From: a phage
NCBI GenBank assembly: GCA_009015555.1
Contig: GCA_009015555.1_3613.1
Strand: one strand, 5' to 3'
DNA: 64,000 nucleotides
Positions 2,983 through 58,848 of this stretch are shown here, piece by piece. How positions within the stretch are numbered: the stretch's first letter is position 1; each line of letters opens with the position of its first letter. The notes under the pieces are model-generated. The model was not told where the DNA came from, searched no databases, and was given only the letters and a program-made list of their open reading frames with translations. A program made the position numbers and the translations under genes.

Positions 2983-5900
2983 ATGGCACAATATGAAGAT
3001 AAGGTCGTGGAAGTTCTGGTGACTCTCCCGGAACCGTCTGCGAGCACCTCTGGTGGTTCTGGTGCGCCTTTCACGGGCATCGAAACCCAAGACACCGTAT
3101 CCACCACACTGATTGGTGATGGTACTCAATCCTCCCCTCTGCAAGCAAACATCAACATCTCCCGTCGTTCAGGAAACCGCCTCCAAGTGGTGAGCACCTC
3201 CAGTGAGCAGGGTCTGTATGTTGCTGGCTCCGACACCAAGGTGTCTGCTAAGGATGGGAACACCGTAACTTACATCTCCGCCCAAGATGCGGCTAACGCT
3301 GGCAACCCGGCCCTGGAAGGTGTATACTCTGATCCGGTGAACGTGTCAACCACGTCACCGAAGAAGACTCTGGAAATTAAGGCTGATCCTACCGGGAAAG
3401 CCAAGACCCAAATCGACGTGATCGTTGATCCAGATTCCATGAACGCCCTGAAGGTAGGCACTGCTGGCCTGAGCGTTCCTGTTTCTGTGGCTCAAGACAA
3501 CACTCTGGAAATCCGCCAGGGTGCTCTGTACGTCCGCCCGCAAGAGACTAAAATCTCCCAAGACCCAAACAACAAGATTCAAGTCAAGTCTGACGGGATT
3601 TACGTTGACACTGTAAAAGGTGATAAAGGTGATACCGGGGCAACTGGCCCGGAAGGCCCTCAAGGCCCACAGGGAGACCCGGGTCCTCAAGGTCCGCAAG
3701 GCCCGCAGGGCGATAAGGGTGATAAAGGTGACACCGGGGACGTAGGACCAGCGGGGGCAACTGGCCCGGCAGGGGCACAGGGTGCTCGTGGCCCAGAAGG
3801 TCCGAAAGGCCCGGCTGGTATTGGTATCAACGTCATCGATCAGCTTGACGAAGTTTCTCAGCTTCCGGCTGTTGCGGAAATGGAACTGGGCGACACTTAC
3901 GTTATTGGACAGAATTTCTGGACCGTTGTCAACGAAAACAACGTGAAGCAGTGGAAGGACATCGGTAACTTCGCGGGGCCTGAAGGTCTGTCTGCTTATG
4001 AAGTTGCAGAAGGCGCGGGCTTCGTTGGTACTGTTGATGAGTGGCTGGAATCCCTGAAAGGGGCTGACGGTATCGGTCTGCAAATTCTTGGTTCCTTCCC
4101 TGACCCGTCCTATCTGCCTGATGAAGGTAACAAGCCGGGTGACTGCTACATCATCCAAGACATGATGTATGTGTGGACAGGTGATGAAGATGGGTGGCAG
4201 ACTGTAGGTCAGATTGGCCCAGAGGGTAAATCTGCGTATCAGGTATGGCTGGCTAACGGTCACACCGGATCTCAGGTTGACTTTCTGAACTCCCTGGTTG
4301 GCCCACAAGGACCGAAAGGTGATAAAGGCGACAAAGGTGATACGGGTGCTGACGGTACTAACGCCAACGCCATCAACCTCTTGGGTAAAGTCGCAGACGA
4401 AGCGAGCCTCCCGGCTGGCGCGGATGCAGGCGATGCCTACCTGATCGGAACTAGCGTTTGGGTCTCCACTGGCAATGACAACTGGGAAAACCTCGGTGCC
4501 TTCCAAGGCCCTAAAGGTGATCAGGGGGATGTCGGCCCTGCTGGCCCGAAAGGCGACAAGGGGGACGCAGGTGACGTAGGCAAAGACAACTACGCATTGG
4601 CGGTAGAGAACGGGTTCCAAGGTTCCCTGAGCGACTACCTGGCATCTCTCAAAGGTGCGAAGGGCGACACTGGCCCGACTGGTCCGCGTGGTCTTACTGG
4701 TCCGCAGGGTGTGAAAGGTGACGCAGGGGAAGGTCTTGCGATCCTCGGATCAAAAGCTGATCCTTCAGAACTACCTTCCAATCCAGTAACTGGTGATGCG
4801 TGGCTGATCGGAGAAGACCTGTACATCTTCAACGGCACTGCTTGGGAGAATGCAGGCCCTGTCCGTGGTCCGAAAGGTGACACCGGAGCCACTGGCCCGG
4901 CTGGAGCTAAGGGTGACAAGGGTGACCAAGGCGAGAAAGGCGACAAGGGTGACCAAGGTGATGTCGGCCCGGCTGGCCCGGAAGGTCCGCAGGGGACTGG
5001 TCTGACGCCGAAAGGTTCTGTTCCTACAGTAGCAGATCTTCCTGACCAAGACAACACCAAAGGCGACTTCTGGGCTGTAGAGGAAGATGGCAATGGTTAC
5101 GCTTGGGATGGGTTGCAGTGGGTTGTTACTGGCCTGACTCGCGGCCCGCAAGGCGAGAAAGGCGACAAGGGCGACAAAGGGGATAAAGGTGATCCGGGGG
5201 ATACTGGTGCCACAGGCGCAGGTGTTATTCCGAAGGGAACTGTAACCTCTGCTGCGACCCTGCCTCCTACCGGGAACACCGTCGGTGATTACTACGTCAC
5301 TGAGGATACTGGGACCGGATACTCTTGGAACGGGACAACCTGGGTTGACTTGGGAGTTGTGCGTGGACCGCAAGGACCGCAGGGCGACAAAGGTGATACC
5401 GGAGACCAAGGTCCGCAAGGTGTGAAAGGTGACACTGGTGCTACAGGCCCTCAAGGCCCGCAAGGTGACATCGGCCCGGGCGTTGAGATCATGGGTAAAC
5501 TCAACAGCACCTCAGAACTGCCTTCAACCGGGCAACTGGGTCAGGGTTACCTGATTGACGGCGACTTCTGGGGATGGACTGGCTCTGCCTACGAAAACCT
5601 TGGACGTATCCAAGGCCCGGTTGGTCCTACTGGTCCTACTGGTGACCCAGGCCCTACGGGTCCGCAGGGTGTCAAGGGTGATAAGGGTGATCAAGGTTCC
5701 TTGTGGATCGTGTTCGACCATGACCCGGGTCCTGCTGATGGTCGTGTAGGTGACTACTTCCTTAACTCCTCAACGTTGCAGTTCTTCCGCAAGACGAACG
5801 CAACCACTTGGGCACCGATGGGTTACATGGGTGGCGGTAACGTTTACGATTCCCCGAAAGACGGCAAGCAGTACGCTCGTATCGACGGGGATTGGGAACT

Positions 5901-21497: not shown

Positions 21498-22142
21498 ATG
21501 GCAGAGGAAATTGTACTGAAGGATGTTAACCACATCCACCCTCTGCCGGATTTCGTGAAGGGAGGTTTTGATTACGTCCCTTCCGATATTTTCACAGGCA
21601 AAGAGAACTTCGAGAAGACCCTCCGGATCTTGTTGGAGCGCCTTGAGTATATCGACCAAAAGATGGTTGAACTTGCTGAACTGCGTACCACATTGAACGC
21701 AGAAGACGCCATCCTTGACGAAATCGGCAGACAGTTGGGCATTTACCGTAACGGCCTGAATGACCCCGAGTACCGTGCTGTTATTATGATCTTGACCGGG
21801 AACAACTCCAAGAGCGGGACCCGCGCCGATATCATTGCCACCCTGAAGCAACTCTTCGGGGAAGACGGAGTTACGACCTACAAGGGGCACAACTACCGTC
21901 TCGATATTAACATTTTCAATACCTGTATGGAAGTCACCGACATCCTGCCGGAGATCATCGACATGCTTCCCTTGGTCACTCACCTCCGTGTGGTTGAGAA
22001 CCAGGGTTACCCATTCGGTTTCAACGGTGACGCACAGGCATTTGGGTTCGCATCGGTTTATGACTCAGAGCGTACCGGGGCAGGTGGCATGTCCACCCTA
22101 ATTTATGTATCGGACGACGAGGAAGACTGGTCGTTCACGTGA
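21498..22142 (+). CDS. baseplate or tail protein (P2 gpI-like position)
   Basis: 214-aa ORF with RBS AAGGAG; precedes tail fibre gene. Confidence 0.4.
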   Translation: MAEEIVLKDVNHIHPLPDFVKGGFDYVPSDIFTGKENFEKTLRILLERLEYIDQKMVELAELRTTLNAEDAILDEIGRQLGIYRNGLNDPEYRAVIMILTGNNSKSGTRADIIATLKQLFGEDGVTTYKGHNYRLDINIFNTCMEVTDILPEIIDMLPLVTHLRVVENQGYPFGFNGDAQAFGFASVYDSERTGAGGMSTLIYVSDDEEDWSFT

Positions 22143-22152
22143 GGAGATTTTC

Positions 22153-23808
22153 ATGGCTAAACCAAAGGACCCTATTTACGTTTGGGCTGCTGCCGACGTA
22201 AACCTTCCAGGCACGGGTCGTCCTAACAAATCAAAACCTATTGACGACTTGCTCGCCAAGGGTTACGATAAAGGACAAAAGCCAGCAGCAGAAGAGTTCA
22301 ACTATATCCTGAATATGTCCTCTGCCTGGGTTAACTGGATCGTCAACGAGAAGTTTCCAGAGCTTGAGGCAGAAATCGCCCGGCTCTTGGCAGAACTTGA
22401 AAACCGCATCAACCAGCAGTTGGCTGTTATCCGTCAGGATATTGCCCAACTGAAGCAAGATGTCGCAGACCTTCGTCGGTATGTCGATCAGAAGGTTCAA
22501 GAACTGAAGCAAGAAATCCAAGGCGTCCGAAACGACCTGAACAAACTGCGTCAAGACTTTGATGCTGCGATTGCTCAAGTCAACGGACGAATTGATGACC
22601 TTGAGCCACGCCTTGTTCCAATCGGTGCCGTTATCCCTTGGCCTGGGGCTACAGTCCCTAACGGCTGGTTGGAGTGTAACGGCCAGGTGTTTAATACCGG
22701 GACAAACCCTAAGCTGTATGGAGTCTTGGGGCGTAACGTTGTTCCTGACTACCGTGGTCTCTTCCTGCGCGGCTGGGCACACGGCTCCGGTGCTAACGAT
22801 CCTGATGCTGGTCGTGCTCTCGGTTCTGTTCAGGGTGACGCCATCCGTAACATCACGGGTTACTTCCCTGCGGATATCGGTCAGTCAGGCTGGATCGGTC
22901 GTTACGTTGGTGGTGTGTTCCGGGACGATGGCGCACTGACCTCTGGTGACCAAGGATCTCGTAGTGGTGAAGTACGTAAGTATAGCCTCGATGCTTCCCG
23001 CCAGGTCCCAACGGCCCCGGAAAACCGTCCGAAGAACGTCGCGGTTATGTACATCATCAAGACTGACCAGGCACAATCCTCCGGAGGCAACTCACCAACG
23101 GCGATCGTCGTCTCTCCAGACACAATCACCAACCGTGTAGGATACACCGTCAAAGCGACTGCGAGTGTACTCCCTGCTTCCATCGCAGGTCAATACCCTG
23201 TAACATGGTCTACTCAAAATGCTGCGGTGGCAACGGTTGATGGTTCTGGCAACATCCGCCTTGTAGGGCCGGGTGAAACCAACATCATCGCTTCCATCTC
23301 TACCGGGATGAACGTAGCGATCCGTGTGACGAGCTATTCTGTTCTGACCAGCATCTCCATTGCTGATCCGGGCCAGATTCCGGTCACAGAATCGAAGATG
23401 CTGGTTGTTACCAAAAACCCGGGGAGCGCGAACGAACCTCTGCAATTCCTGTCAAATAACTCCGGTGTTGCGACTGTGAACGACGCAGGTTACGTAACTG
23501 GTGTTTCCCCGGGAAGTGCCACAATCACGGTTCGTGGTACTCTTTCCGGAGTGTCATCAACTCGTTCAGTGACTATTATCCCTGAGCAAGTGGAGGAGAG
23601 CGTACAGGACAACCGTCTCGGTGCGGTAGGATCTTACATCCCACCCGGCAACGAAATCAGTTGGACTTTCCAAGCCCCTCAAGGTTGTGCTCTGACAGGT
23701 ATCATCGTACAAGACGTCGGGTCCAACTCCGCCGACAACATCGGTGGTGTTTATTACAAACCGATCCAGAAGAAAGTTAACGGCGTCTGGGTCACGATCA
23801 CGGGGTAA
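22153..23808 (+). CDS. tail fibre protein with phage tail-collar domain and Ig-like (Big_2-type) repeats
   Basis: Start at ATG 22153 (RBS GAGGAG); N-terminal KPAAEEFNYILN fibre motif, coiled coil, collar motif PWPGATVPNGWLECNGQ...YGVLG, then repeated VTWSTQNAAVATVDGSGNI-type modules. Confidence 0.65.
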   Translation: MAKPKDPIYVWAAADVNLPGTGRPNKSKPIDDLLAKGYDKGQKPAAEEFNYILNMSSAWVNWIVNEKFPELEAEIARLLAELENRINQQLAVIRQDIAQLKQDVADLRRYVDQKVQELKQEIQGVRNDLNKLRQDFDAAIAQVNGRIDDLEPRLVPIGAVIPWPGATVPNGWLECNGQVFNTGTNPKLYGVLGRNVVPDYRGLFLRGWAHGSGANDPDAGRALGSVQGDAIRNITGYFPADIGQSGWIGRYVGGVFRDDGALTSGDQGSRSGEVRKYSLDASRQVPTAPENRPKNVAVMYIIKTDQAQSSGGNSPTAIVVSPDTITNRVGYTVKATASVLPASIAGQYPVTWSTQNAAVATVDGSGNIRLVGPGETNIIASISTGMNVAIRVTSYSVLTSISIADPGQIPVTESKMLVVTKNPGSANEPLQFLSNNSGVATVNDAGYVTGVSPGSATITVRGTLSGVSSTRSVTIIPEQVEESVQDNRLGAVGSYIPPGNEISWTFQAPQGCALTGIIVQDVGSNSADNIGGVYYKPIQKKVNGVWVTITG

Positions 23809-23813
23809 TTAAC

Positions 23814-24329
23814 ATGCGTATGAATAACTTCAAACACTACAACCCGAAGGCGAAAGCCTTCGGGGACGGTGTTCAATATTTTTCTGATGACAAGGGCCGT
23901 GATTTTTACGAGAGTCTCGGCCTGTTTACCAAGAAATATGCGGTCCTTTTCGATGAGTTCGGAATGGTCCGCTTCTTGGTCAAGTCTGTGGATATTTCTA
24001 TGACTTATCCATTGGGCCTGTCTATTTCTGACCTGAACAGCATCCCAAAGGACTTCGACATCATGAAGGGGCCTTGGATGTTCGATGGGAAGAAAATTAC
24101 CAAGGTGGACTTCGACTTGGCTATCGGAACTGCCAAGCGTAAGAAAGCCATCATGGGGTCTCTGTCCAGCCAGATCACACCATTGGCTGATGCAGTGGGA
24201 CTGGGTGAAGCAACAGAAGAGGAGATTGAGAAATATAATGCTCTTCTGAAACTTCGTGTTAAGCTAAATCGGATCTCTGATGACACTCCCGCGAGTGAAA
24301 TTGATTGGTCTGAGTTCACCGCTGCATAA
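23814..24329 (+). CDS. tail fibre assembly protein
   Basis: 171 aa; C-terminal ITPLADAVGLGEATEEE...LLKLRVKLNRISDDTPASEIDW matches conserved tail-fibre-assembly C-terminal region. Confidence 0.55.
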   Translation: MRMNNFKHYNPKAKAFGDGVQYFSDDKGRDFYESLGLFTKKYAVLFDEFGMVRFLVKSVDISMTYPLGLSISDLNSIPKDFDIMKGPWMFDGKKITKVDFDLAIGTAKRKKAIMGSLSSQITPLADAVGLGEATEEEIEKYNALLKLRVKLNRISDDTPASEIDWSEFTAA

Positions 24330-24337
24330 CCTTTCAG

Positions 24338-24357
24338 GCCGGGTATTTGCCCGGCCC
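24338..24357 (+). promoter_or_regulatory. intergenic hairpin (GGCCGGG-TATTTG-CCCGGCC)
   Basis: Inverted repeat between fibre-assembly gene and membrane-protein gene; no T-tract. Confidence 0.3.
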
Positions 24358-24370
24358 CAGGAGAACACAC

Positions 24371-24709
24371 ATGGCTCTTGATATTATGTTGATTCTGAAG
24401 TCTCTTTGGGGTTTGGTGACTTTCCTTCTGTTGGGGGTACTCAAAATCTTTTATTCCGACTTCAAGAAAATGCAGGAGAAGCAGGACGCTCTTGAAAAAG
24501 ATCTGATTCGGCTTCGTGGTGAGATGGTCAGCAAAGATAGTATTGATGACATCCTGGATCGTAAGATCAAGCATATCACCGACACTATTGGCGACATTCG
24601 TGCCGACATCACTGACATGCGGAAAGAGGCCAAAGAAGAGACTAACGCTCTTCAGAAGGACATCCGCTCCGTACTTAACGTCATGTTGGAGAGTCGTCGC
24701 AACAAATGA
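24371..24709 (+). CDS. membrane-anchored coiled-coil protein
   Basis: Track ORF 24347..24709; ATG 24371 with AGGAGA; N-terminal TM helix then heptad-rich region. Confidence 0.5.
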   Translation: MALDIMLILKSLWGLVTFLLLGVLKIFYSDFKKMQEKQDALEKDLIRLRGEMVSKDSIDDILDRKIKHITDTIGDIRADITDMRKEAKEETNALQKDIRSVLNVMLESRRNK

Positions 24710-25164
24710 TCACGTCCATTATTTTTGGACTCTGCTTCGTCATCCTGGCAACTCGCCCGGATGCCGGGGCCAAGATTATGGCGGGGCTTGGCCTCGCCTA
24801 TCTTGTTCTCGAAAACCTGATGTTTTGGTTTTTCAGCGGGGCCGAGTTCTTCGACATCACGCTGTACTTTACCACAGCTTGGGCATTGGATTCAATACTT
24901 TTATTTGCCGTGGCACTCTTTGTCCGAGGGTATCGTCAGGTCGCTGTTTTGGCGCTGGCCCTGCCTCTGATGCTGGTACAAGTATTCGCAATCCAATATC
25001 CAATCTTATTCCCCGATTGGGTTTATTCCTTCGCCGTACAGGATGCACACAGGTATTTCATCGAGGTGTTTATCTTCGTCTATTCCTGGAAGGACAATAC
25101 AGTCTCCGAGTGGCTCAGAACAGGAACCGTTCTGGCACTTGTTATTGTTGCCCATCTGGTGTGA
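24706..25164 (+). CDS. polytopic membrane protein (about 4 TM)
   Basis: 152-aa hydrophobic ORF; start overlaps upstream stop (ATGA). Confidence 0.5.
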   Translation: MITSIIFGLCFVILATRPDAGAKIMAGLGLAYLVLENLMFWFFSGAEFFDITLYFTTAWALDSILLFAVALFVRGYRQVAVLALALPLMLVQVFAIQYPILFPDWVYSFAVQDAHRYFIEVFIFVYSWKDNTVSEWLRTGTVLALVIVAHLV

Positions 25165-25187
25165 CGCATTGATAATGAAGGTGTTCT

Positions 25188-25451
25188 ATGCTAAAATTCT
25201 TCAAAGACCTCGTAACTTCCCCCATCGAACCTGACAAGGCTTCCCACACGAAGTTCTGGTCAAACGTGGGTATGGCGGCTATGACGGCAGTTTTCCTCTG
25301 GTACGGCTTCAACAACACCCTCCCGGAGTGGTATGTTTGGGTTTATGCACCCACAGTAGTAGCACCTCACCTTCTGAGTGACCTCATCAATCTTCGTTGG
25401 GGTATTGCCAAGAAAGAGTCGGAAGTTTCCAACAACGAAGAATCCAAATAA
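25188..25451 (+). CDS. holin-like small membrane protein
   Basis: 87 aa; one or two TM helices; charged C-terminal tail EVSNNEESK; RBS GAAGGTG. Confidence 0.4.
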   Translation: MLKFFKDLVTSPIEPDKASHTKFWSNVGMAAMTAVFLWYGFNNTLPEWYVWVYAPTVVAPHLLSDLINLRWGIAKKESEVSNNEESK

Positions 25452-25463
25452 GAGGAGATTCGC

Positions 25464-28400
25464 GTGTCATCCAATACTGATATCATTGCCCTGTTGAGCA
25501 GCGATGCTGACAAGGCAGTTGACCAGATCATCGAAGACTCCAAACGTCTTCACATCGTGGTCAACGGGACGGGCACCGAGCAGGCTGTTGCAGAGGATGG
25601 GAGCTTGCTCCCGTCTGTTCGCAAAGCGCTGATCGACAACCTGTATTTCAAAACCCCACCTCTTCCCTGGAGAAACGGTGGGTCTGTCAACGAGTTCAAC
25701 CAGCTTTACTCCTTCACCGACGTAAGCGGGAACACCACTTGGTGGTATGCGCCCGGAGCTACGGTATCAAACCCGGTTGTGATGCGTGACAGCCCGATCA
25801 ATGACGGCAAGTTCAAGGTTTTCTTGGACAAAACCAACATCGCCGATATCTATGCCCCTCTGAACTCTCCGAACTTCGTCGGTAACCCCCGTGTGCCTAC
25901 CCCGGCCCCTGGCGACAACAGCCAAACCGTCCCGACAACCGGGTGGGTTCAGTCAGAGATGCAGGACCTGGAAGACCAGATCATTGCCTCTATGAAGGGT
26001 GATTTCGAAAACATCACCGTCCGTAACGATGCCGTTCTCAAAGACACGTATATCAGCGGTGAGTTCATTGTCACCAGTGATAAGTTGTCCGCTGCCAGCG
26101 CCGAAGCAACCTTCCGTCGTATTCGTGTGGTCGGCACCGCAGACAATACTGAGATCGCTTTTGAGCAGAACACCGCACCTCCAGCGGGGGCGAGCACAAA
26201 GACTAACATCAAGCCGTACACGATGTCAACAGGCATCTTGACGATTGACCAGTTGAAAGGAAAATCTGCCCAGATTGGTGATGTTGCTGTTGCCACGGAC
26301 TCCCTGAATGTCGATGGGTACATGCGTGGGGATTACCTGCATCTGGAAGGTAACAACCGAAACAGCACAACCCGCCCTCAGTTGATCGTTGATGGTATTG
26401 CAGAGATCAATACGCTGCGGGTGACTGGAACCATCGAGGGTGTAAAAGCTGATGTTGATGGCTTGGATATTCATCCTCGTAGTGTTATCATCGACGAAGG
26501 TTTGACGGTTGGCAAAGATACCTCCCTGACAGGAAAGCTGACTGTCGGCGGTACAACCAAGGTGAATAACCTGGAGGTTACTGGAACCCTGTCTGGTGTT
26601 GCTATCAGTGTTGACGGTAAAGACATCAAGCCCCGCTCTGTTAACACCGGGAACTTGGTTGCTACTGGCAACGTGCAGATCAGTGGGACGACCACTGCAA
26701 CCGGGAAGATCACAACTCAAGATCTTGAAGTGCTTGGCACACTGACAGCTAACCTCGACCTGTCCGGGTCGGATCTGAGTGTTGATAATATCAACGTTGC
26801 AGAAACCGCGACAATAAAGGATTTGGTGGTTACCGGAAAAACAACCGGGGTCAAAGGTGACGTTGATGGAACCTTGATCAAGCCTTCTTCTGTTCAGGCA
26901 ACGGGCCTTGTGTCAGCAGGTTCATTGTCTACCAATGCAAATGCCTCTATCGGGGGTAACCTGACGGTGACTGGAGAGTTCCGTCCCGCCAGCATGGAAA
27001 CAGGTGCAGTTGAGGCAGATAGTCTGGTTGTTAATGGTAACATTTCCCAGACGACAGGAACAACCTCTGTAGTCAACCTGGTTGTCACAGGAACGACAAC
27101 TGGCGTAACAGCCGATGTCAATGGTGACGACATTTTGCCTCGCTCCGTGACTACTACTGCGGGGGTTAAAGTCGGAACCACCCTCGACGTAACTGGAAAG
27201 ACTACCCTCGGAGATGTTGATTTCACTGGGGTTGTTACCGGGCTTGAACTTGATCTTTCTCAAAAGAACGTGACAGTTAAGTCAATTGCTGCTGTAGATC
27301 CTTCTGCATTTGGGGATGTGACGACAGATAATCTGACCAACAGCGAGAAGATCATCACTCAAGACATCCAAGTTCTGGGTGATATTCTGGATGCTGCGGG
27401 GAATCCTGTCAACACCTTTGATGTTACAGGCAAAGATATTCTGCCAAACAGTGTTCAATCTGCGACGTTTATTCGCGGAAAAACTCTGGACATCAGTGAC
27501 GGTTCCACCCTCCGTGGCCCTGTCGAGTTCCGTAACGGGCTGACAGTAACTCTTGGAGACATCATGTCGCCCCAAGGGAAGGCAACGTTCAACGATGTAC
27601 AGGTCAATGGTGCATTGACGGACGCTAACGGCAACGTCATCGGCTCCGTTGAAAGCATCAAGGGCAAGGACATTGAACCACGCTCCGTTGTGGCTACCGT
27701 GTCTGTACAGGCCCCTCGTCTCCAATCAACTGGGGATATTTTGGGCCAGAGCGCGACAATCACCAATAACGTCTCTGCGGGGACCTTGGGTGTTTCCGGG
27801 TTGACAAACCTGGCAGAAACTCGTGTGAATGCGAAGCTAACAGGGCAATCCACAGAGTTCGAAACTCTGCTCCTGAAGCGCGTTGCTGGTCAAGATACAC
27901 CTCGCTTGGTTGTGCAGGGGGATTCAGATCTCCAGGGGGACCTGAACGTCTCGGGGACCATTACCGGGATTGTTGACCTGACGGCTCAAGATATCCGTAT
28001 GAACAGCCTTGTGCTCGCCGAGGATCTTTCTGCAAGGAATATTACAGGATCAGGCACGGTTCAGGGCGCTAATGGAATTTTCGGCCAGTCTTCCCAGCCC
28101 ACCACCCAGTACGGTTTGCAGTCTCTTTCCAGCGCTAAGGTAGATAAAAACCTCGATGTTGGAGGAAACTTGCGGGTAACTGGGGCCATTACCGGAAGTA
28201 TGGACTTCACAGGGAAGGATATTACCCCACGGAGTGTCGCGGCGTCAGCCGGAATCGGGGCCGTGGATATCACGGCATCCGGCACGACAACGACGAAGGA
28301 CCTTGTGGTCACCGGGACGACAAGTTTTGCGGGAGACAGCGTTTTCAATGCAGGCCAGGTTAAGTCCAAGTTGTTCACCGTTGACATTGGTACTGATATC

Positions 28401-28688
28401 ACTTCAGGATCGGGGTCTTGGATTCCAGACGGGCTTCAGTCCGTTTATAACGTGACGGTTACCGCCGATACCGTTATCGGTTCCATTGCTCAGTTGCCGG
28501 GCGCGGGGACTTACTTCTTCTATATCGAGCAGGATGCTGTTGGGGGCCACACTGTGACCTTTGACCCAGCTTACCTCAAGATTGGTGATGGAGAAGTGGC
28601 TACAGCGCCAAACGCAATCTCTCTGGTCCAAGTAATCTACCGTGGTAAAGGTTCAATCTTCGACTACGTGATTCTTAACCGAGGTTAA
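25464..28688 (+). CDS. long tail fibre protein with internal about 40-aa tandem repeats
   Basis: 1074 aa; GTG start with AGGAG; conserved fibre motif NSPNFVGNPRVPTPAPGDNSQTVPTTGWV; many repeats of VTG..GV.ADVDG.DI.PRSV. Confidence 0.7.
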   Translation: MSSNTDIIALLSSDADKAVDQIIEDSKRLHIVVNGTGTEQAVAEDGSLLPSVRKALIDNLYFKTPPLPWRNGGSVNEFNQLYSFTDVSGNTTWWYAPGATVSNPVVMRDSPINDGKFKVFLDKTNIADIYAPLNSPNFVGNPRVPTPAPGDNSQTVPTTGWVQSEMQDLEDQIIASMKGDFENITVRNDAVLKDTYISGEFIVTSDKLSAASAEATFRRIRVVGTADNTEIAFEQNTAPPAGASTKTNIKPYTMSTGILTIDQLKGKSAQIGDVAVATDSLNVDGYMRGDYLHLEGNNRNSTTRPQLIVDGIAEINTLRVTGTIEGVKADVDGLDIHPRSVIIDEGLTVGKDTSLTGKLTVGGTTKVNNLEVTGTLSGVAISVDGKDIKPRSVNTGNLVATGNVQISGTTTATGKITTQDLEVLGTLTANLDLSGSDLSVDNINVAETATIKDLVVTGKTTGVKGDVDGTLIKPSSVQATGLVSAGSLSTNANASIGGNLTVTGEFRPASMETGAVEADSLVVNGNISQTTGTTSVVNLVVTGTTTGVTADVNGDDILPRSVTTTAGVKVGTTLDVTGKTTLGDVDFTGVVTGLELDLSQKNVTVKSIAAVDPSAFGDVTTDNLTNSEKIITQDIQVLGDILDAAGNPVNTFDVTGKDILPNSVQSATFIRGKTLDISDGSTLRGPVEFRNGLTVTLGDIMSPQGKATFNDVQVNGALTDANGNVIGSVESIKGKDIEPRSVVATVSVQAPRLQSTGDILGQSATITNNVSAGTLGVSGLTNLAETRVNAKLTGQSTEFETLLLKRVAGQDTPRLVVQGDSDLQGDLNVSGTITGIVDLTAQDIRMNSLVLAEDLSARNITGSGTVQGANGIFGQSSQPTTQYGLQSLSSAKVDKNLDVGGNLRVTGAITGSMDFTGKDITPRSVAASAGIGAVDITASGTTTTKDLVVTGTTSFAGDSVFNAGQVKSKLFTVDIGTDITSGSGSWIPDGLQSVYNVTVTADTVIGSIAQLPGAGTYFFYIEQDAVGGHTVTFDPAYLKIGDGEVATAPNAISLVQVIYRGKGSIFDYVILNRG
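26380..28330 (+). repeat. tandem protein-coding repeats within tail fibre gene
   Basis: Recurring G-K/D-DI-x-PRSV and VTGT motifs at roughly 120-nt periodicity. Confidence 0.5.
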
Positions 28689-28691
28689 TAC

Positions 28692-28716
28692 AGCCGCCTT
28701 CGGGCGGCTTTTATTT
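28692..28716 (+). terminator. rho-independent terminator
   Basis: AGCCGCC-TTCG-GGCGGCT stem followed by TTTATTTT. Confidence 0.5.
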
Positions 28717-28726
28717 TGGAGGTATT

Positions 28727-29923
28727 ATGTTTCCTTTTGCTATTATTCCACCGTTTGTTCTTTCAGGCAAGGAAAAAATCAAGCAGTTTTCGGTTACGTC
28801 TTACGACAGTATGGTCCTGACTGATAAGGGGAACCTGTATGTTACAGGATTCAACCGGGTGGGTGAGCTTGGTGTTGGGGACACAACTAACCGAAATAAC
28901 CAATGGGTTTTGGTAATGCAGGACGTAAACTGGATTGCAAGCAACCGTGAGAAGCTGTGGGCAATTAAGAACGACGGTTCCATTTACACCCCGGATCTTC
29001 GGTCATCCAGTACAACTGCATATACTTGGCAAATCGACACGGTAGCACCTGGAAGTATTGGGGATTTGTCTGGGGATAATATCAAGGAGATTTACAGCGA
29101 CACAGAGAGCGTATATATCCTCAAAAAGGATGGTTCACTGTGGTATCTGGGAAATAACTCTAAAGGCCAAGCTGGAAACGGGGGAACTTCCTTAACCACA
29201 CGCTTTGTGAAGGTTTCAGATGGTGTGGTATCTTGGTCATCCAGTGGACCCACTGTTGTTTTCGTGAAAACAGACGGATACTTCTGGGGCTGCGGATCAA
29301 ATTCCCGAAATATCATTTCCTCTGCTGGCAGCAGTATCACAACCCCTACCCGGATGTTTAGCACCACCCACGCTGACGGAGGTGTTGTAACAGATTACAC
29401 GCTGGCCTCTGACCAAGCGTTTTTGATCAGATATAGTAATGGTAAATATCGTACCAAAGGTCTCAATATCGGACAACTTCCTTCAGGGGATGCAAGTCCA
29501 TACAATACCCTTACGGACGTTCCTGACGGATACACCCCCGGTGATGGAACGGAGCCTCTGGTAAGCAAAACAGGAGGGGTGTCGGCCTCTGGAACTTGGC
29601 CTAACTATAGTGGTCTTTTCTTCTACCATACGGGAGGGAAATTCATAGTCACTGGTCAAGCAAGCGGGAGAATTTCCGGGACCAGCCAAACCAGCGGTAC
29701 ACTCTCAAACTGGACCAATGTCGATGCGGCAAGTGACGAGATCCCATCTATCAAGGGAATGACCTTCGGACTGGGTTGGGTTGCTGCCTACAACGATACG
29801 CAGATTCTGTACTGGGGGTATACGGGAAACTCCTCTGCATATCCGGTTGTGGGATACCTAATGCCCGGACCTTCAAGGCTTGAATATGTGGCACGTTTTG
29901 CAACCCCGCCGATCGAGGCATAA
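28727..29923 (+). CDS. RCC1-like beta-propeller repeat protein (fibre-associated by position)
   Basis: 398 aa; repeated G.N..G.LG.G-type blades (GFNRVGELGVGD, GNNSKGQAGNG, WGCGSNS); RBS GGAGG. Confidence 0.5.
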   Translation: MFPFAIIPPFVLSGKEKIKQFSVTSYDSMVLTDKGNLYVTGFNRVGELGVGDTTNRNNQWVLVMQDVNWIASNREKLWAIKNDGSIYTPDLRSSSTTAYTWQIDTVAPGSIGDLSGDNIKEIYSDTESVYILKKDGSLWYLGNNSKGQAGNGGTSLTTRFVKVSDGVVSWSSSGPTVVFVKTDGYFWGCGSNSRNIISSAGSSITTPTRMFSTTHADGGVVTDYTLASDQAFLIRYSNGKYRTKGLNIGQLPSGDASPYNTLTDVPDGYTPGDGTEPLVSKTGGVSASGTWPNYSGLFFYHTGGKFIVTGQASGRISGTSQTSGTLSNWTNVDAASDEIPSIKGMTFGLGWVAAYNDTQILYWGYTGNSSAYPVVGYLMPGPSRLEYVARFATPPIEA

Positions 29924-58129: not shown

Positions 58130-58318
58130 TTAATCGTGAGCCAAACAAGCAGTGATTACAGTTGCCAAGAGGAACATCAAGGCTCCCCACCCCATCAAAT
58201 ACGGGACCTGGGATGAGAACTGTGCCATCATCTCAGGGAAAAAGAACTGTGCGCCCCAGCGGGCCGGGAATATCCAAACCAGCATGAATGTAATGAACAG
58301 AATGATAAGATTTCTCAT
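58130..58318 (-). CDS. small membrane protein (2 TM), holin-like by size and position
   Basis: 62 aa, hydrophobic; RBS AGAGGAAAAGG; start overlaps stop of hydrolase gene. Confidence 0.45.
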   Translation of the reverse strand: MRNLIILFITFMLVWIFPARWGAQFFFPEMMAQFSSQVPYLMGWGALMFLLATVITACLAHD

Positions 58319-58848
58319 GTCGCCTTTTCCTCTTTTGGTTTATAAAACACATGGTAGCCGATAGTGGCTGTTTTCGTAAAGAACTTTCTCCAGTATGGCT
58401 TGACCTTCTTCGTGTGGAAGTGAGTCGCACCATGTGTTGGGTCCAGCTTGTTGTACAATACCTCATTATTCCGGATCTTGTAAAGGAATCTCGCAATATC
58501 TTGTGCGACCATCCAAGACTCCCGATCCCTGACTGCATAGCCGTTTCTTGCCATTGTCCAGGAAAATTGTGCAGATTGATACACAACCTTCCTGACTGAC
58601 CCGGGATACCCGTCGTGCTTTAGCCTGTTCAGAGTAACAAATCCAACCGCCATCTGTCCACTGATATTTTCCCCACGCGACTCGAAATAAATATTGCAGG
58701 CCAGTGCGTTGACCGACGAGTCATTGTTTTTGCACACATGAACAACCGGGGCGAGCTTTTTCTTCGGTGCGTTATCTTTTGCCAAAGCAGATACTGGGGC
58801 GAAAGATAAAGCGCTGGCTGCGAATAGTGCAGCGATGCTCTTTTTCAT
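58315..58848 (-). CDS. secreted cell-wall hydrolase, SleB-type
   Basis: 177 aa; N-terminal signal peptide MKKSIAALFAASALSFAPVSALA; NIYFESRGE...GQMAVGFVTLNRL motif of SleB-type hydrolases. Confidence 0.6.
   Translation of the reverse strand: MKKSIAALFAASALSFAPVSALAKDNAPKKKLAPVVHVCKNNDSSVNALACNIYFESRGENISGQMAVGFVTLNRLKHDGYPGSVRKVVYQSAQFSWTMARNGYAVRDRESWMVAQDIARFLYKIRNNEVLYNKLDPTHGATHFHTKKVKPYWRKFFTKTATIGYHVFYKPKEEKAT

Follow-up and report, generated by a model that had tools for sequence, protein, structure and literature searches.

Three membrane proteins encoded within a Certrevirus tail-fibre operon as a candidate lysis-timing module

Three small membrane proteins, here called P1, P2 and P3, are encoded between two tail-fibre genes in a 64,000-nucleotide stretch of phage DNA (GenBank assembly GCA_009015555.1, contig GCA_009015555.1_3613.1; the whole stretch is hereafter called the window). 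We propose that these genes form a late-expressed lysis-timing module within the tail-fibre operon, in which P3 would act as the holin and P1 and P2 as its modulators, a reading that sequence comparison makes, on balance, somewhat probable. More specifically, P3 is most likely the holin that has not been found in this group of phages, because members of its family elsewhere sit between endolysin and spanin genes.

Results

P3 belongs to a widespread family of small proteins

P3 matches the PHROG family phrog_1322 over residues 1-85 of its 87 residues (E-value 4.5e-32). A short N-terminal helix and the motif SHTKFWSN come first, followed by a pair of moderately hydrophobic helices with a 6-residue loop between them; the C-terminal tail (RWGIAKKESEVSNNEESK) is charged. 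The AlphaFold2 model, which is of low confidence (predicted local distance difference test score, pLDDT, of 59), places helices at residues 2-9, 20-41 and 48-71, followed by the disordered charged tail. Small size, predicted transmembrane (TM) helices and a charged hydrophilic C-terminal tail, by which holins can be recognised, are all present in P3, the helices at low confidence. The original prediction, made from the DNA letters alone, had described P3 as holin-like with a charged tail: the tail and the two helices (the latter with low confidence) hold up, and the protein proves less hydrophobic than implied, with no 19-residue window reaching a Kyte-Doolittle value of 1.5. Its hydropathy is similar to that of T7 gp17.5 and near that of lambda S.

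A profile search of 1.84 billion representatives returned 92 clusters of the P3 family at 50% identity. Members mostly have 70-130 amino acids (aa) and follow the pattern SHTK[FL]WSN, helix, short loop, helix, SK..S.KYG, charged tail, with an additional N-terminal helix in a subset. In the IMG/VR database, at least 362 stretches encode family members, and distant members carry SHTK[FL]WSN and match phrog_1322 with E-values of 1e-14 to 1e-24. A profile search of genome contigs with the Vequintavirinae-type alignment returned nothing; the patterns were too specific, and IMG/VR later gave prophage members. No family member is annotated as a holin in GenBank records. Five of 80 family representatives match DUF2644 (PF10841; best E-value 6.3e-5), a Pfam family matched neither by P3 nor by 19 of its close relatives. 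Both phrog_1322 and DUF2644 are without assigned function, and the literature search returned no mention of DUF2644.

P3 relatives occur between endolysin and Rz-type genes

The genomic context of P3 relatives was surveyed at 83 non-redundant IMG/VR loci outside Vequintavirinae, at which genes were called and the neighbouring proteins clustered. An endolysin gene occupies position -1 or -2 relative to the P3-like gene at 38 of the 83 loci, encoding an M15-peptidase at 28 and an amidase at 10. On the downstream side, an Rz-type protein, defined as a member of an Rz cluster or as an N-terminal-TM protein of 110-240 aa, is found at position +1 or +2 at 35 loci, with a clustered Rz gene at 20. Both neighbours are present at 19 loci and neither pattern at 17, while T4-like phages account for 12. 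PHROG assignments of the neighbours include endolysin/amidase families upstream (14 + 9 + 2 of 52) and Rz-like families downstream (19 + 4 and more of 49). A hydrophobic segment is lacking in 37 of the 38 endolysins, which therefore need a holin, and a second small multi-TM protein is present at one locus only.

The arrangement can be followed in the cultured Pseudomonas Mu-like phage Bise, where the gene order is Mor, Peptidase_M15_4, the P3-like gene, Rz, a 92-aa TM-plus-coil protein, a 104-aa protein and the small terminase subunit. At other loci, a GH24 Phage_lysozyme gene (8.9e-39) lies two genes downstream of the P3-like gene (L059), an Rz gene (Pfam Phage_lysis, phrog_1327) follows it directly (L037), and a DUF5675 gene is found near it (L041). 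A three-helix variant of P3 occurs in T4-like phages, at 3908-4219 of the Stenotrophomonas phage Marzo locus (L148) and at 12 IMG/VR loci (L042 and L058, for example). In Menderavirus, this 3-TM variant is an isolated gene between DNA polymerase and dUTPase/regA, on the other strand from the replication genes.

P1 resembles membrane-tethered proteins of Mu-like lysis cassettes

A single strong hydrophobic segment (Kyte-Doolittle 19-residue mean 2.19) lies at the N-terminus of P1, with the TM helix at about residues 6-24, and is followed by about 85 charged and presumably helical residues. Of the TM plus coiled coil originally predicted for P1, the TM segment is borne out, whereas the coiled coil amounts to weak family matches within Pfam noise. 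An acidic residue (D4) precedes the helix and basic residues (K25, K32, K33) come after it. In these respects P1 is like Mu gp25 (DUF2730), which has the same size, an acidic N-terminus, one TM helix, basic residues and a charged helical domain, and hhalign pairs the two at 32% probability over the full length, compared to 3.5% for lambda Rz. Mu gp25 is said to be membrane-tethered and cytoplasmic, and Mu reportedly lyses without a holin, through gp25 as a releasin. Mu differs in having a signal-anchor-release (SAR) endolysin and no holin, whereas a holin candidate is present here.

In Mu-like cassettes bearing P3 relatives, proteins with a TM helix and a coiled coil (TM-coil proteins) hold the position that gp25 has in Mu, and P1 aligns to a cluster of TM-coil proteins at +2/+3 of P3-like genes with an hhalign value of 51%. 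A TM-plus-coiled-coil family with the motif LP..Y.RR[ED]D.IR occupies the gp25 position in Bise (L147, 4234-4512); it is also found in IMG/VR loci L040, L054, L055, L080, L084, L097 and L118, and is not recognised by Pfam DUF2730. Other TM-coil proteins stand beside P3 relatives at L060, L037, L041 and L059 and at 9 + 6 clustered loci. We read P1-type and P3-type proteins as a recurring partnership of architectures, whose homology is not proven.

At E <= 0.1, the Pfam DUF2730 model matched none of P1, PVP-SE1 gp44, rV5 ORF31 and phi92 gp149, and a hidden Markov model (HMM) iterated from the Mu-like TM-coil cluster recovered neither P1 nor Mu gp25. The gp25 relatives that could be retrieved are near-identical copies only, so the gp25 profile was not improvable. 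Through this weak link, P1 is a candidate membrane-tethered lysis regulator, either releasin-like or resembling an antiholin or holin regulator. An inner-membrane spanin (Rz) was considered for P1 and rejected: the protein has no Phage_lysis match and no lipoprotein partner, its hhalign value against lambda Rz is the 3.5% given above, and the Rz/Rz1 pair of the genus lies by the terminase gene.

P2 is a six-helix accessory protein

The AlphaFold2 model of P2 has six helices (pLDDT 90.7; predicted template modelling score, pTM, 0.84), in agreement with the polytopic membrane protein that had been predicted, and the charges of its loops suggest an N-out/C-out topology. P2 is an accessory membrane protein, translationally coupled to P1 through the sequence ATGA, in which the P1 stop and the P2 start overlap. 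A timing protein like LysA of phage P2 was tried as a counterpart and rejected, the hhalign value of the P2 family against LysA being 0.2%. All of the P2 relatives P0145-P0186 carry the precomputed Pfam accession PF26221.

The three genes are conserved beside tail-fibre genes

P1, P2 and P3 are genuine genes and not chance open reading frames (ORFs). In PHROG searches, P1 matches phrog_5345 at 3.2e-45 and P2 reaches 1.7e-75, and tblastn retrieves relatives of P1, P2 and P3 in 222, 107 and 374 phage records, respectively. A Pfam scan of the three proteins gave nothing significant. Over the region 23800-25500, identity is 99.1% to Cronobacter phage PBES 02 and 82-97% to other members of Certrevirus (CR3, CR8, phiTE, CB7 and others; Vequintavirinae), and across all matching database records the three proteins are labelled only "hypothetical" or "putative membrane protein".

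The order fibre, tail-fibre assembly gene, P1, P2, P3, fibre is shared by PVP-SE1 (gp46 to gp41), Av-05, Hena1 and Mydo-like phages. P2 is restricted to part of the subfamily: in rV5, the fibre gene ORF30 occupies its slot, between a P1 homologue (ORF31; hhalign 98.4%) and a P3 homologue (ORF29). In phi92, which belongs to another subfamily, the P3 homologue gp144 follows the endosialidase, and gp149, a 113-aa TM-plus-helix protein that aligns to P1 with an hhalign value of 59%, follows the assembly gene. P3 is conserved in Vequintavirinae, in Stephanstirmvirinae and beyond. Conservation and synteny together mark P1 and P3 as old conserved genes and P2 as an accessory one.

The three ORFs lie, as the original prediction placed them, on the plus strand between the Caudo_TAP gene and the long fibre gene (Table 1). 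The P1 ATG is preceded by AGGAG at 7 nt, and a ribosome-binding sequence, AAGGTG, lies upstream of the P3 start. P2 and P3 are separated by 23 nt, and P3 and the long fibre gene by 12 nt. A terminator scan found the first convincing sites at 28692 (28692-28709) and 29927; from the first fibre gene to 28692 there are several weak consensus matches and no terminator convincing enough to split the operon. The fibre genes and P1-P3 therefore look like a single late transcript, and P1-P3 are probably expressed late. A sigma70-like site at 25169-25197 was dismissed, as transcription from it would begin within P3.

Table 1. Features of the trio locus and of the putative lysis genes elsewhere in the window
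Feature	Coordinates	Strand	Description
Collar/Big_2 fibre	22105..23808		Upstream of Caudo_TAP gene; Pfam/PHROG
Tail-fibre assembly protein (Caudo_TAP)	23814..24329	+	Pfam 2.5e-12; phrog_136 9.4e-41; upstream neighbour in P1-P3 operon
Stem-loop	24337..24358	+	GC-rich, GGCCGGGT-ATTT-GCCCGGCC, without U-tract
P1	24371..24709	+	112 aa; ATG start
P2	24706..25164	+	152 aa
P3	25188..25451	+	87 aa
Long tail fibre	25464..28688	+	1074 aa; phrog_4549; CB7 homologue confirmed by tandem mass spectrometry (MS/MS)
RCC1-repeat (beta-propeller) protein	28727-29923		After long fibre gene
62-aa two-TM ORF	58130..58318	-	Overlaps end of SleB-like gene; literature's holin candidate (CB7_82 type)
SleB-like Hydrolase_2 cell-wall hydrolase	58315..58848	-	Pfam 2.6e-22; signal peptide annotated in PBES 02

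The stem-loop falls between the fibre-assembly stop codon and the ribosome-binding site of P1 and has a folding energy of -18.8 kcal/mol (RNAfold). It is kept in 9 Certrevirus loci, and at L011 the sequence differs yet still pairs. The outer stem is able to pair with part of the P1 Shine-Dalgarno sequence. The role of the hairpin may lie in attenuation, in stability or in damping translation.

An ORF in an alternative frame (24516..25172, plus strand, GTG start, 218 aa) covers the end of P1 and the whole of P2 and is probably spurious. It was rejected as an embedded outer-membrane spanin, since its SLTC falls short of a true lipobox and P2, which it overlaps, is conserved. Downstream of the long fibre gene, the RCC1-repeat protein has a CB7 homologue that is structural by MS/MS, and is a possible third fibre or adhesin component. 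When window positions 30000-64000 are compared to 88200-122300 of PBES 02, the coordinate offset shifts by roughly 1.1 kb over the replication region, and PBES 02 has HNH endonuclease genes around a split DNA polymerase gene; this suggests that the two genomes differ in homing-endonuclease content.

Lysis functions are spread over the genome

The original prediction also allowed that lysis functions may be split, and the wider layout agrees: the SleB-like hydrolase gene is distant from the trio, and the paper on phage CB7 describes Certrevirus as having no classic lysis cassette, with spanins encoded by the terminase gene and the main endolysin elsewhere (PMC7344957). In PBES 02 and Mydo, Rz/Rz1 immediately precede the large terminase gene, with no holin gene nearby; for this genus the pair falls outside the window. 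The spanin genes open the late block that also holds the trio. A Sec-exported SleB-like wall hydrolase among replication genes is odd for an endolysin.

No holin was found in the papers on KPP-1 and on Menderavirus Ps15, and the announcement of four phages of STEC (Escherichia coli that produces Shiga toxin) identified none in the myovirus Gotham, which we take to be that announcement's Vequintavirus. For Klebsiella phage KP12, a "T1-like" (peg.278-280) and a "P2-like" (peg.316-321) lysis cassette have been reported (PMC9902359). The KP12 cassettes adjoin Mu gp27-like, P2 ogr and tail X genes, neighbours that have ~99% matches to Enterobacter/E. coli chromosomal proteins, so the KP12 holins appear to lie on host prophage contigs and not in a Vequintavirinae genome. 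As counter-evidence to the missing holin, they were dismissed as prophage contamination.

The CB7 paper itself proposes that a class II holin is encoded by a two-TM ORF of 65 aa beside the SleB-like gene (PMC7344957). The window carries an ORF of this type, 62 aa long, which brings in the alternative that P3, perhaps together with P1 and P2, is a lysis helper and not the hole-former: an antiholin, a pinholin-like depolariser or a releasin-type factor, with the true holin encoded elsewhere, for example by this ORF. The 62-aa protein is strongly hydrophobic and has two TM segments, and P3-like genes lie downstream, not upstream, of the endolysin gene. Lysis in Mu, moreover, reportedly runs holin-free through gp25. 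Weighing the other way, tblastn finds the 62-aa ORF in 18 records, all from Certrevirus, where it diverges fast and is truncated in CR9; it has no charged C-terminal tail; and the hydrolase with which it pairs is Sec-secreted and encoded among replication rather than late genes. Mu-like cassettes with soluble endolysins also usually hold no other multi-TM protein besides the P3 relative. We regard a helper role with a separate holin as rather improbable.

Discussion

A holin candidate in a tail-fibre operon

We hypothesize that P3 forms a helical hairpin in the inner membrane, its two termini facing the cytoplasm (N-in/C-in). It would accumulate alongside the fibre proteins and permeabilise the membrane at a critical level, and the resulting hole would give a soluble endolysin from a gene elsewhere access to the cell wall, after which the Rz/Rz1 spanins encoded by the terminase gene would complete lysis. 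P1, a single-pass protein that is probably N-out/C-in like Mu gp25, and P2 would tune the firing of P3 as antiholin-like or releasin-like partners. The topology of P3, the formation of a hole and the interplay of the three proteins are thus deduced, and modulation by P1 and P2 is the weaker part of the proposal. The lysis cassette that had been suggested for the trio accordingly fares unevenly: it gains indirect support for P3, whose relatives lie between soluble endolysins and Rz, while a spanin-like P1 is not sustained and P2 has no informative relative.

Comparison of gene order with relatives, which had been put forward as a check, shows two settings: fibre-flanked genes in Vequintavirinae and phi92, and lysis cassettes for distant relatives of P3. 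A parallel for the first setting is provided by T7. Like P3, the class II holin gp17.5 of T7 is small, with weakly hydrophobic helices and a basic/acidic tail, and is encoded by a late gene next to a tail-fibre gene. The T7 layout is likewise split, with holin gene 17.5 after fibre gene 17, spanin genes 18.5/18.7 by the terminase gene and the lysin gene far off. The loop and second helix of the two proteins are alignable (LxEW...K..I..K), yet P3 is unlike gp17.5 in its SHTKFWSN motif, its extra N-terminal helix and its two accompanying membrane proteins. Homology to gp17.5 was rejected in favour of analogy, since the P3 family aligns to gp17.5 alone or to 18 T7-like sequences with hhalign values of 12-16%, over the loop and second helix only.

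The lysis cassette of phage P2 (the holin Y, the endolysin K, the polytopic timing protein LysA and the spanins LysB/LysC) is similar in composition, as it combines a small holin-like protein, a polytopic timing protein and TM-plus-helical proteins. It differs in that the trio cluster has no endolysin and P1 has no lipoprotein partner, and the Y holin is unrelated to the P3 family (hhalign 0.1%). In T4, the holin gene t lies downstream of fibre genes 37/38, which places a membrane-protein gene beside fibre genes as here. The T4 T protein differs from P3 in having one TM helix and a large periplasmic domain.

Several observations weigh against P3 as a holin and P1 and P2 as its modulators. P3 in the window adjoins neither an endolysin nor a spanin gene, its neighbours being fibre genes, so the case is one of guilt by association in distant relatives (27-50% identity). 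Within Vequintavirinae and phi92-like phages, P1 and P3 are strictly tied to fibre genes, a tie that a pure lysis role does not need. P3-like genes follow the endolysin rather than precede it, so that an antiholin, pinholin or releasin-type role is conceivable for P3. Its helices fall under the usual hydrophobicity threshold, its structural model is of low confidence, and it matches no known holin family (T7 gp17.5 12-16%, phage P2 Y 0.1%, Pfam none). The link between P1 and Mu gp25 is weak (32%, with no DUF2730 match and no connection by HMM iteration), and for P2 there is no functional lead, and rV5 does without it.

Superinfection exclusion and fibre assembly as alternatives

The second function suggested in the original prediction was superinfection exclusion, in which the trio would form an exclusion or receptor-masking set beside the receptor-binding proteins. 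Exclusion genes are known beside receptor-binding genes, and T5 llp, phi80/N15 cor and T4 imm/sp are parallels. The PHROGs category of phrog_1322 is "moron, auxiliary metabolic gene and host takeover", and the 3-TM variant of T4-like phages lies near the DNA polymerase gene, where T4 has imm; that gene, though, lies on the other strand from the early replication genes. Imm-type motifs of T4 are absent from the P3 family, with no Pfam Imm_superinfect match among 80 of its members, and PADLOC returned nothing relevant. In addition, the early action of exclusion proteins does not suit the late structural operon that holds the trio; relatives of P3 sit inside lysis cassettes of temperate Mu-like phages; and the family is a core gene across subfamilies, not patchy like a moron. 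The suggestion is accordingly not upheld by these data, and we consider exclusion unlikely.

A role of the trio in tail-fibre morphogenesis, as membrane-anchored assembly factors or as minor virion or fibre components, would account for the strict synteny in Certrevirus, PVP-SE1, rV5 and phi92, in which P1 follows the tail-fibre assembly gene and P3 precedes a fibre or baseplate gene. A few GenBank records also name the P3 homologue "structural protein", and a virion band of 12 kDa is tentatively assigned to a "putative membrane protein" in the KP12 paper (PMC9902359). The MS/MS notes in the CB7 GenBank record, on the other hand, confirm every neighbouring structural protein and list neither the fibre-assembly protein nor CB7_33 to CB7_35, the counterparts of the trio, so that the virion membership named beforehand as decisive against a lysis or exclusion role did not materialise in this virion. 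Small hydrophobic proteins are easily missed by mass spectrometry. In electron cryomicroscopy (cryo-EM) of phi92, gp144 and gp149 are not among the built components, and the phiTE cryo-EM paper, as far as its text is reached by a term search, yielded none of the homologous locus numbers. Relatives of P3 in Mu-like lysis cassettes and T4-like replication regions are, furthermore, far from fibre genes, and we see only a slim chance that the trio serves fibre assembly.

Implications

Because rV5-like, PVP-SE1-like and phi92-like phages are common therapeutic and biocontrol candidates, and several papers cannot find their holin, a concrete holin candidate with two possible regulators makes this gap testable by standard assays. 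If a lysis role were refuted, the strict pairing with fibre genes would instead suggest exclusion, or that fibre assembly includes a step at the membrane.

P3 likely represents a new holin family, a view to which we lean modestly and which is drawn entirely from comparative evidence. If true, it would add a holin family to annotation libraries, in which phrog_1322 is now a "moron" and DUF2644 functionless, and hundreds of genome records would be corrected. It would also provide a second case, after Mu, of a membrane-tethered coiled-coil protein in lysis control. A wider version, which we advance tentatively and with somewhat less than even confidence, is that phrog_1322 is a large unrecognised holin family which would fill the holin gap in four groups or more (Vequintavirinae, the phi92-like Stephanstirmvirinae, T4-like Menderavirus with its relatives, and a set of Mu-like prophages) and would act with a releasin-like, membrane-tethered coiled-coil partner of the P1 type. 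The pair would then have been captured in the fibre operon of rV5-like phages, where the lysis clock would be set by the transcript for the last virion parts.

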